Part shown: piece by piece, positions 59,370-61,550 of the stretch
How the letters are laid out: every line of letters starts with the position of its first letter
How positions within the stretch are numbered: position 1 is the first letter of the stretch
Source of the DNA: Escherichia coli
GTDB lineage: Bacteria > Pseudomonadota > Gammaproteobacteria > Enterobacterales > Enterobacteriaceae
Direction: 5' to 3' (one strand)
DNA: 64,000 nucleotides
Assembly (NCBI RefSeq): GCF_003334765.1
Contig: NZ_QOWT01000013.1
Position numbers and translations under genes: made by a program
Notes under the pieces: model-generated
Told to the model about the DNA's origin: nothing
Database searches by the model: none
The model's input: only the letters and a program-made list of their open reading frames with translations

Positions 59370-60188
59370 TCAGCGCAGGCTCTCCAGCAGCATTTCTGCC
59401 ATTACCCACAATGCGCGGTTGAGCTTAATATCGGTGTCGATGTTGTGAATGGCACGGGTGTGGATACGTTTTCCTTTTGCACTGCGGCCGGAAATCCCGC
59501 CTTTCAGCATATTCTCCTGGATGGTCTGATAAGTACTCCACAGGTCCTTACCGTAATCCTCCCGGCGTCGTGGCGTCAGAATGTCGGCGGTGGTGACGGG
59601 CCGATGTTCGTCACCATAACGGTAAGTCAGTGCCGCCTGTGCCAGCTCCTGGCGTTCCGGTGGCGGCAGGACCAGCGACTGCATGGCATCACGCTTCTCC
59701 TCTATCCGGTCAAACACGCCCACCACCTCGTAAGCCCCTTCGATAACTTTCTCCACTACATTTCCCCGGTGTGGAACACGCACTTCCCCCAGAGACTGGC
59801 CACAGACGCACCCGTTCTGGCAGACGAACCTGAAGTAACCCGGCAGCATCTGGTAGCTGGAGGTACCGTCATGAGAGTTGAGCAGAATAATTTCAGGGAC
59901 ATGTTCTCCGTTTATCTCTCCGGCCCGCCGCAGACGCAGCATGTGTTTTGTGTATCCCCGGCGGCCCGGGTCGCGCACGCGGGTCTGGCAGGCGAAGAAT
60001 GGCTGAAAACCTTCCTGCTGCAGGCTTTCCAGTACGGTGATGGTGGGAATGTACGCATATCGTTTACTGCGGGAAGTATGCCGGTCTTCACCGAAAATAC
60101 TGGGAACATAGTGCATCAGTTCTTCGTGTGTCAGCGGACGGTCACGGCGTATCTGGTTCGTATAACCAAAACGACTGGCTAGTCGCAT
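59370..60188 (-). CDS. DUF932-family protein (YfjQ/YafZ-like)
   Basis: 272-aa ORF MRLASRFGYTNQIRRDRPLTHEELMHYVPSIFGEDRHTSRSKRYAYIPT... Confidence 0.8.
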   Translation of the reverse strand: MRLASRFGYTNQIRRDRPLTHEELMHYVPSIFGEDRHTSRSKRYAYIPTITVLESLQQEGFQPFFACQTRVRDPGRRGYTKHMLRLRRAGEINGEHVPEIILLNSHDGTSSYQMLPGYFRFVCQNGCVCGQSLGEVRVPHRGNVVEKVIEGAYEVVGVFDRIEEKRDAMQSLVLPPPERQELAQAALTYRYGDEHRPVTTADILTPRRREDYGKDLWSTYQTIQENMLKGGISGRSAKGKRIHTRAIHNIDTDIKLNRALWVMAEMLLESLR

Positions 60189-60305
60189 AATTTGCTCCTT
60201 ATCGGTGGTTAAGATTTACTGGTGTAATAAATGAAAAAGCCACGTCTCCCGGAGAAGACGCGGCCTGACAGATGAAATGAATGACGTTTATTGTCTGAGA
60301 AGCCC

Positions 60306-60530
60306 TTAACTGGCGAGCCGCGTATTAAGCTGTGTTCCGGTATCGGGCTCAAAATTCCGGCAGCACCAGCGCAACTGACCTCCAGCATTACGGATAACCA
60401 GCCGGAAATGTGTTCCCAGGTCATCTTCCGTAAACACATTGCTGTAAGTTGTTGTGACGGCAACCACCTGTTCGCATGAGAAAGGGCCTTCGGGAAATAA
60501 GAGTAATGTACAGCCCTCATGTATTTTCAC
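60306..60530 (-). CDS. Hypothetical small protein (74 aa, GTG start)
   Basis: Only protein-like ORF in the 60189-60625 gap; no clear Shine-Dalgarno; overlapped by a 103-aa ORF in another frame with less protein-like composition. Confidence 0.3.
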
Positions 60531-60625
60531 CTGAAAATAAAAGTCGCTGTAATCATGGCAGGGCCGTATTTATTTTTGATATTAATAAATTAATAACGCG
60601 AAAATGAACCGCATAACTTACTCCT

Positions 60626-61108
60626 TTAATTTGTTTTGTTTACGTAGTCCTTGACCAGGTACGCGAATTCGTGAACGCCAATTTCACCAAACCAAATCAG
60701 GTAACCAGGGTCGATGTTGTAATAGTAACCAACGACTTTATGTGTTTTTGGGTTATAGAGTGTTATGATAAAGTTCCACCCGCAAGCGTGAGCTTTACAA
60801 CCACCACCTTCTACCCAGGTCGTTCCGTTAATGTTTACAGGATATGCACCACCGCCAGGACCATCCATATAGCCGTCTTTACCGAACATCCCGTCCAGTC
60901 CGACGGGATTTAGTGTTTTGTCGATAGCTACTCTGTAGGTAGCGTCACCTTCGTATAACTCGTACGTTGTTGGACATGCACCAGGCTGGCCAGACCAGGC
61001 TTTTGAGTCGCATTTAAGGGTCTGATTTACAGTGGCGGCGTTTGTGTCAGGACTTACACCAATAAACAGGAAAACCAGAAAGAACATCAGAGTATGTAAA
61101 CGTTTCAT
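60626..61108 (-). CDS. Exported Ivy-family-like protein (putative lysozyme-inhibitor paralog)
   Basis: 160-aa ORF with signal peptide (MKRLHTLMFFLVFLFIGVSPDTNA), good RBS (AAGAAGGAA) upstream, and a CKAHACG motif aligning with the Ivy CKPHDCG loop; downstream segment ...KTHKVVGYYYNID resembles Ivy ...KSNQMTGLFSTID. Confidence 0.6.
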   Translation of the reverse strand: MKRLHTLMFFLVFLFIGVSPDTNAATVNQTLKCDSKAWSGQPGACPTTYELYEGDATYRVAIDKTLNPVGLDGMFGKDGYMDGPGGGAYPVNINGTTWVEGGGCKAHACGWNFIITLYNPKTHKVVGYYYNIDPGYLIWFGEIGVHEFAYLVKDYVNKTN

Positions 61109-61550
61109 TATAAATTCCTTCTTAGGTTATTTAGCACTGCGATTTAAAGTAATACGGCCGATTAACTCAGTGCTATGAAAGAAGTCCACAGCGGTATAAT
61201 TACCGACCGCTAATGGATATTGCCGGACATTACCTTCGCTTGCCCACAGACAATATCATTGAGTCGTTGATAAACATACGTGTCGGGATCGGCAATAATC
61301 AGCCCTGCACAATTGTCATCATGCATTAAACGATAAATTTCCAATTTACTGAAATTTCGCATTAGTTCAGGGACTTCATCAGGATTGATAATGGATGAAT
61401 ATAGAGCCGGGTTGTAATAGTGAATATCCGGCTCGCCGAAAGTATAAGTGTGCTGATACCAACAATACAGACAATAGCGATGGTATAAAGTATCAAGTGC
61501 TTTTTAAAATAGACTGGAAACCAGATCCCCCTTTTTACTTACCTGTGTTA

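Follow-up and report, generated by a model that had tools for sequence, protein, structure and literature searches.

The 442-bp gap between two minus-strand genes at positions 61109-61550 very probably holds an ordinary, unannotated pseudogene of the family phrog_9424, in which alignment and profile matches point to two frameshifts and a lost start codon. In the window, that is, the whole 64,000-nucleotide stretch of Escherichia coli DNA that was analyzed, this gap is bounded by the ATG of an Ivy-like gene at 61108 and by the stop side of an upstream 180-aa ORF at 61551, and the program-made ORF list holds no minus-strand ORF of at least 60 aa within it. In this respect, the sequence-only reading that had singled out the gap as ORF-poor is confirmed, including the boundaries it gave, and its remark that the gap is too long for an operon spacer proves sound as well, the true spacers being only 42 and 18 nt long. 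These spacers become visible upon alignment with p98232, a plasmid-labelled circular replicon in E. coli (NZ_CP173450.1, 221,873 bp), in which an annotated and uninterrupted 128-aa ORF (WP_311383466.1) lies directly upstream of an Ivy-like gene. The parts of the three-gene unit are the following.

62192-62208, minus strand: terminator-like hairpin that follows the patatin-like gene and precedes the three-gene unit (terminator scan).
61551-62093, minus strand: upstream 180-aa gene, first cistron, with an N-terminal signal-like segment (ORF list).
61509-61550, minus strand: true spacer of 42 nt, from the upstream stop codon to the ancestral start position (alignment to the p98232 gene).
61127-61508, minus strand: footprint of the putative phrog_9424-family pseudogene, ancestrally about 128 aa (alignment to p98232, profile match).
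61451-61508, minus strand: N-terminal fragment with a hydrophobic signal-peptide core, ILYTIAIVCIVGIS, in a frame that differs from the rest.
61450-61451, minus strand: site of a 1-bp deletion in ancestral codon 20 (alignment).
61210-61362, minus strand: central fragment, the 50-aa ORF with its ATG at 61362, which holds the 38-aa ORF.
61213-61214, minus strand: site of a 4-bp deletion in ancestral codon 99, where ATCCATCCG has become ATCCA (alignment).
61127-61213, minus strand: C-terminal fragment, LAVGNYTAVDFFHSTELIGRITLNRSAK, in the third frame, ending at the ancestral TAA (61127-61129).
61109-61126, minus strand: true 18-nt spacer with the SD of the Ivy-like gene, AAGAAGGAA, at 61115-61123.
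60626-61108, minus strand: Ivy-like gene of 160 aa, last cistron, preceded by an SD of its own and signal-like at its N-terminus (ORF list).
60596-60614, minus strand: terminator-like hairpin shortly after the stop codon of the Ivy-like gene (terminator scan).

The gap has a G+C content of 39.1%, against 51% for the whole window, and the three-gene stretch (60626-62093) has 41%, with flanks at 55%. The longest minus-strand ORFs that it contains are 50 aa (61210-61362), 44 aa (61362-61496, from a TTG start), and 31 aa. The 38-aa ORF that had been picked out by hand is real, with its ATG (61324-61326), its TAG (61210-61212), and its peptide as quoted, but it is only the 3' part of the 50-aa ORF, whose true start is the ATG at 61362. 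The frame of this 50-aa ORF, which is stop-free over 97 codons (roughly 61213-61503), is also a meaningful one, as it appears to be that of the central fragment of a once-real gene. On the opposite strand, a 98-aa ORF (61395-61691) runs antisense to the 5' part of the pseudogene and to the 3' end of the 180-aa gene; this ORF is probably spurious, since an 8-bp indel of the commonest variant of the locus falls within it.

Once corrected for its frame, the window copy is homologous over its full length to phrog_9424, a family of unknown function in PHROGs v4 to which UGO35906.1 of Escherichia phage vB_EcoM_Lh1B belongs, with an E-value of 2.9e-34 over positions 5-126 of the 128 in the profile, the intact p98232 protein itself matching at 8.9e-42. 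Taken alone, the 50-aa ORF matches positions 51-96 (E 1.8e-11) and the 38-aa ORF positions 66-96 (E 1.4e-7). The three minus-strand frames hold successive parts of the protein, namely ILYTIAIVCIVGIS, then YTFGEPDIHYYNP...KVMSGNI, and finally LAVGNYTAVDFFHSTELIGRITLNRSAK followed by the ancestral TAA, and the family-invariant residues P43, E45, C67, L83, D85, C88, and T122 are all still encoded, the stretches INPDE, NCAG, QRLNDIVC, and RITLNR being found in the ancestral frame. The footprint accounts for 382 of the 442 bp of the gap (~86%) and shares 70.5% nucleotide identity with the intact copy of p98232. The ancestral stop sits 18 nt before the Ivy-like ATG, a layout that matches the 17-18 nt spacer found before the Ivy-like gene in phage-like elements of 222-228 kb (loci L005, L008, L011, and L013). 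No family was retrieved with NCBIfam for the 97-codon stop-free translation or with Pfam for the intact protein. A repeat or mobile-element remnant was also considered as the source of the gap DNA and rejected, this DNA being found once per genome.

The lesions can be placed to the base. Opposite the ATG of the intact p98232 gene, the window reads TTT (61506-61508), and the sole start codon left in the N-terminal region is a TTG (61494-61496) devoid of an SD. A first deletion, of 1 bp, lies in codon 20 between 61451 and 61450; a second one, of 4 bp, lies in codon 99 between 61214 and 61213, resembles the product of slippage, and places the TAG at 61210-61212 in frame. Where family members have an uninterrupted ORF of ~124-144 aa that opens with a start codon and encodes a signal-like segment at its N-terminus, the window thus has minus-strand ORFs of at most 50 aa. 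Given the missing ATG and the two deletions, the window copy would be a pseudogene of phrog_9424 rather than a functional member of the family: intact members make a protein, whereas this copy, without a start codon and with two frameshifts, cannot.

The gap DNA was detected by BLAST in 41 of 5426 complete E. coli genomes, one of the 41 being the replicon p98232 itself. The 40 genomes with a chromosomal copy fall into four variants, each of which was inspected through one representative, the scores being identical among the members of a class. The lost ATG and the 1-bp deletion are common to all four inspected variants, to which each adds its own damage. The 4-bp deletion is specific to the variant of the window and of strain LSN03-016011/A; the IAI39 type carries a further 1-bp deletion and an in-frame TGA; the CFSAN064036 type carries a 4-bp deletion, PGAP still calling a 79-aa remnant there; and in the AF5 type, which is the most frequent, a 79-bp deletion takes out both ATGs (61362 and 61326) together with 26 codons. 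Gene callers also report a 114-aa ORF in an IAI39-like variant, and some residual expression of fragments may therefore occur. In IAI39 (L003 2945-3503) and in CFSAN064036 (L004 2945-3451), the upstream 180-aa gene is broken as well, into two annotated ORFs, which implies that the whole three-gene unit, and not the middle gene alone, is decaying in these genomes.

Selection differs between the two groups of copies. When measured in the ancestral frame by the Nei-Gojobori method, dN/dS ranges from 0.02 to 0.10 among four intact copies, and intact phrog_9424 members are thus under strong purifying selection. Among the broken copies, it ranges from 0.29 to 0.55, on small counts of 8-17 synonymous and 12-29 non-synonymous differences per pair; this is 5-10 times the value of the intact copies, yet below 1. 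Constraint on the broken copies is relaxed, and a dN/dS below 1 on such small counts falls short of proving neutrality.

These observations bear directly on the suggestion, made from the window alone, that the gap could hold a small protein. That the 50-aa (or 38-aa) minus-strand ORF be a functional small protein, either newly exapted or truncated but still active, is in our view highly unlikely, even if this ORF lies in the ancestral frame and retains both conserved cysteines, if PGAP annotates a longer, 79-aa version of it in the CFSAN064036 variant, and if the dN/dS of the broken copies is below 1. Unlike the flanking genes, neither of the two candidate starts (ATG 61362 or 61326) has a purine-rich SD within 25 nt upstream; the 180-aa gene, for comparison, has a good one, AAGGAGAG, before its ATG at 62093. 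Without the signal-like N-terminus, the fragment would be cytoplasmic, and it would also lack the C-terminal strands of the predicted domain. The conservation of the small ORF across homologous loci, which had been put forward as a check, was examined and not found: the commonest variant has lost both ATGs to its 79-bp deletion, IAI39 has gained the in-frame TGA, and the stop at 61210-61212, created by a lineage-specific 4-bp deletion that cuts the ORF short, exists only in the variant of the window. Moreover, most E. coli genomes with an Ivy-like gene lack the gap region. What had been read as a small-protein gene would rather be an internal piece (66-96 of 128) of a ~128-aa gene, devoid of an SD of its own.

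Conversely, one could suppose that the ~128-aa gene is in fact intact, its frameshifts being either assembly errors or bypassed by programmed recoding, and frameshifted genes in assemblies are at times sequencing artefacts. We consider this barely credible here. The 1-bp deletion and the loss of the start recur in the separate assemblies of all four chromosomal variants, and LSN03-016011/A is 98.6% identical to the window over 5 kb but 100% identical across the gap, on which ground the lesions can be held to be real rather than erroneous. Neither deletion falls in a homopolymer run, no slippery heptamer is present at 61450/61451, a 4-bp gap is beyond standard +1/-1 frameshifting, and the ATG would still be absent. 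Neither sequencing error nor programmed frameshifting is therefore likely, and a decayed phrog_9424 gene remains the reading that we retain.

The gap had also been proposed to hold an sRNA or an independent promoter for the Ivy-like gene. A regulatory element of this kind, be it an sRNA, a structured 5' leader, or such a promoter, seems to us very unlikely. It is true that ~380 nt of probably untranslated RNA before the Ivy-like gene could expose this gene to Rho-dependent polarity, which would favor an internal promoter, and that the gap is AT-rich (39% G+C). However, the sRNA is not borne out: a search of Rfam over 60000-62600 at E <=1 returned only a chance match to a eukaryotic snoRNA (21.5 bits against a gathering score of 35), there is no terminator-like site on the minus strand of the gap, and the z-scores of RNA folding on the two strands (-1.42 and +0.15) are not significant. 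As for the predicted promoter, the minus strand of the gap has no 9/12 match to a sigma-70 promoter, and its 8/12 matches occur at the rate expected by chance (4 observed vs 3.6 +/- 2.0 in shuffles) and all lie more than 280 nt upstream of the Ivy-like ATG. The large indels between variants also argue against a conserved RNA or promoter, and in the representative inspected for the majority form of the Ivy-like gene this interval is missing altogether. On the minus strand, the terminator scan found nothing between the hairpins at 62208-62192 and 60614-60596, and hairpins on both flanks with none within fit a single transcription unit for the three genes.

With regard to the neighbors of the pseudogene, the upstream 180-aa gene retrieved no Pfam, NCBIfam, or PHROG family in profile searches, and an equivalent 543-nt CDS is annotated by PGAP in the gap-bearing locus L001. 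The Ivy-like gene matches Pfam PF08816 weakly (E 0.0053 over 43 residues) and NF007443 with 19.3 bits for a cut-off of 180, that is, below the family threshold. A CKAHAC loop is visible in its sequence, which we take to resemble the CKPHDC inhibitory loop of Ivy. "Ivy-like" hence denotes here a resemblance, as judged from sequence, and not an established membership of the Ivy family of C-type lysozyme inhibitors. Homologues of 160-161 aa are found in E. coli and in phage-like elements, and the 160-aa gene of the window is itself probably intact, because it has its own SD, an ATG, and a signal-like segment, and because it has these 160-161-aa counterparts in phage-like elements. The SD AAGAAGGAA is kept in every inspected variant of the alignment.

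In all the gap-bearing genomes examined (L001 3127-3615, L002 3090-3578, L003 and L004 2018-2506, L005 2516-3016), the Ivy-like CDS carries the PGAP flag "incomplete; missing N-terminus". This flag probably arises since the reference protein is a deletion fusion of 223-227 aa that is common in E. coli. Indeed, the Ivy-like gene is present in 2333 of the 5426 complete genomes, in most cases 60-80% identical in nucleotides to that of the window, and O157:H7, the inspected representative of this identity class, encodes a 227-aa fusion protein. Residues 1-63 of this protein match the first 63 residues of the 180-aa protein of the window (49% identity), and residues 66-227 align with the complete Ivy-like protein at 71% identity, signal-like segment included, which implies that a deletion took the remainder of the upstream gene together with the whole of the middle gene. 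The fusion (WP_000775497.1 in O157:H7) occupies the same slot of CP4-type islands as the genes of the window, between the patatin-like and DUF932 genes; in the fusion form, the first ~63 upstream codons are joined to the Ivy-like gene and the interval is gone, whereas the window keeps the older three-gene layout, its middle gene decayed. In O157:H7 (L014 2060-3169), the fusion is accompanied by a 136-aa protein, which shares 64% identity with its 136-aa counterpart in a phage-like element.

Intact relatives of the middle gene are few. A word-indexed search returned 16 clusters, and an exhaustive profile search for phrog_9424-like proteins over 1.84 billion representatives likewise found only 16 clusters, which makes this a small family. 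Its intact members occur in two settings. The first consists of 53 jumbo-phage genomes, from Seoulvirus/SPN3US-like phages of Salmonella and E. coli (~240 kb), Erwinia phages, and one Proteus phage. The second consists of circular replicons of 222-228 kb and of metagenome contigs: besides p98232, an Enterobacter ludwigii replicon (unnamed1, NZ_CP134650.1, 222,441 bp, "non-mobilizable") carries the same pair of 128-aa and Ivy-like genes, with WP_311383466.1 again as the phrog_9424 member, and so do four further inspected loci from metagenome and sequencing-run contigs, where the two genes are adjacent. In these elements, the genes follow one another in the order 128 aa, Ivy-like 160-161 aa, 136, 129, 158, and 202 aa, up to an 834-aa SMC_N protein, and signal-bearing proteins of the YfjT family (PF27224) are often encoded just upstream of the 128-aa gene (as at L011/L012, 1977-2943). 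The pseudogene of the window thus immediately precedes the Ivy-like gene, as do its intact counterparts in the 222-228-kb elements, whereas in Seoulvirus the downstream neighbor is an unrelated signal-bearing protein of 163 aa. p98232 and the Enterobacter ludwigii replicon are syntenic with the Seoulvirus vB_EcoM_Lh1B over a block of at least 6 genes that ends at the SMC-domain gene, and nearly all of their genes in the stretches shown are hypothetical. Both replicons are probably jumbo-phage genomes or phage-plasmids that were filed as plasmids.

The AlphaFold model of the intact protein (pLDDT 84) comprises a seven-strand all-beta domain preceded by an N-terminal helix, which we interpret as a signal peptide. 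Its structural neighbors are only generic propeller-blade fragments (Z <=7.6) and uncharacterised Erwinia-phage proteins, Foldseek against viral models retrieving uncharacterised proteins of Erwinia jumbo phages only, and a literature search on SPN3US, signal peptide, and periplasm returned nothing relevant. Because of its signal-like N-terminus, its two invariant cysteines, and its signal-bearing neighbors, the ancestral phrog_9424 protein was presumably periplasmic, beside the other small signal-bearing proteins of the jumbo-phage block.

On this basis, a probable history of the locus can be proposed. The ancestral unit would have consisted of three minus-strand cistrons, encoding the signal-bearing 180-aa protein, the ~128-aa phrog_9424 protein, and the Ivy-like protein. 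The middle gene would have lost its ATG and gained the 1-bp deletion in codon 20 in the lineage that passed into the CP4-type islands of E. coli, after which the variants would have gathered lesions independently, among which the slippage-like deletion of 4 bp in codon 99 that introduced the TAG at 61210-61212 here. The end state would be three out-of-frame fragments, of which the middle one appears as the 50-aa and 38-aa ORFs, so that the interval today is probably an untranslated stretch of mRNA between the upstream gene and the Ivy-like gene, the latter retaining its own SD within the 18 nt that follow the ancestral stop. Pseudogene decay in a prophage-like island is ordinary: like other pseudogenes of such islands, this one combines a shared lesion with lineage-specific ones, a relaxed dN/dS, and eventual deletion in most genomes, and nothing sets it apart from them except that PGAP leaves the window-type pseudogene unannotated and flags its neighbor instead.

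The slot that follows the patatin-like gene in CP4-type islands houses differing subsets of the signal-bearing block of jumbo phages, a link that includes relatives of the K-12 protein YfjT. In a metagenome-derived variant of the island (L017), for instance, the patatin-like gene is followed by a gene for a YfjT-family protein and a 209-aa gene, then by a phrog_9424 gene that a frameshift splits into 82 + 39 aa, and by a 150-aa gene. In the window, the patatin-like phospholipase gene itself (62228-63251, minus strand) is truncated. The window follows LSN03-016011/A only up to ~62679, beyond which the 5' half of the patatin-like gene gives way to sequence for the initial ~167 residues of an Ag43/Cah autotransporter (NF033177, E 3e-99); this junction suggests a deletion or recombination that joined the two.

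More speculatively, and with rather low confidence, the YfjT-family, phrog_9424, Ivy-like, and 136-aa proteins could be viewed as a periplasmic cassette for superinfection exclusion or against lysozymes, which islands would have captured and then trimmed to the Ivy-like gene. If so, the Ivy-like protein would block incoming muralytic enzymes, and the window would represent an intermediate stage of the trimming down to the Ivy-like gene alone.

The main value of the present analysis lies in a correction of annotation: the 442-bp gap can be explained without a new small gene, sRNA, or promoter, and the RefSeq annotation of related genomes both misses what is very probably a real pseudogene and labels an apparently intact Ivy-like gene as a pseudogene. 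Beyond this locus, such a cassette would be shared between Seoulvirus-like and Erwinia jumbo phages, ~222-kb phage-like "plasmids", and the CP4-type islands of E. coli. The existence of intact relatives of the island slot genes in jumbo phages shows that jumbo phages and chromosomal islands exchange genes, and it singles out the Ivy-like gene as what E. coli keeps.
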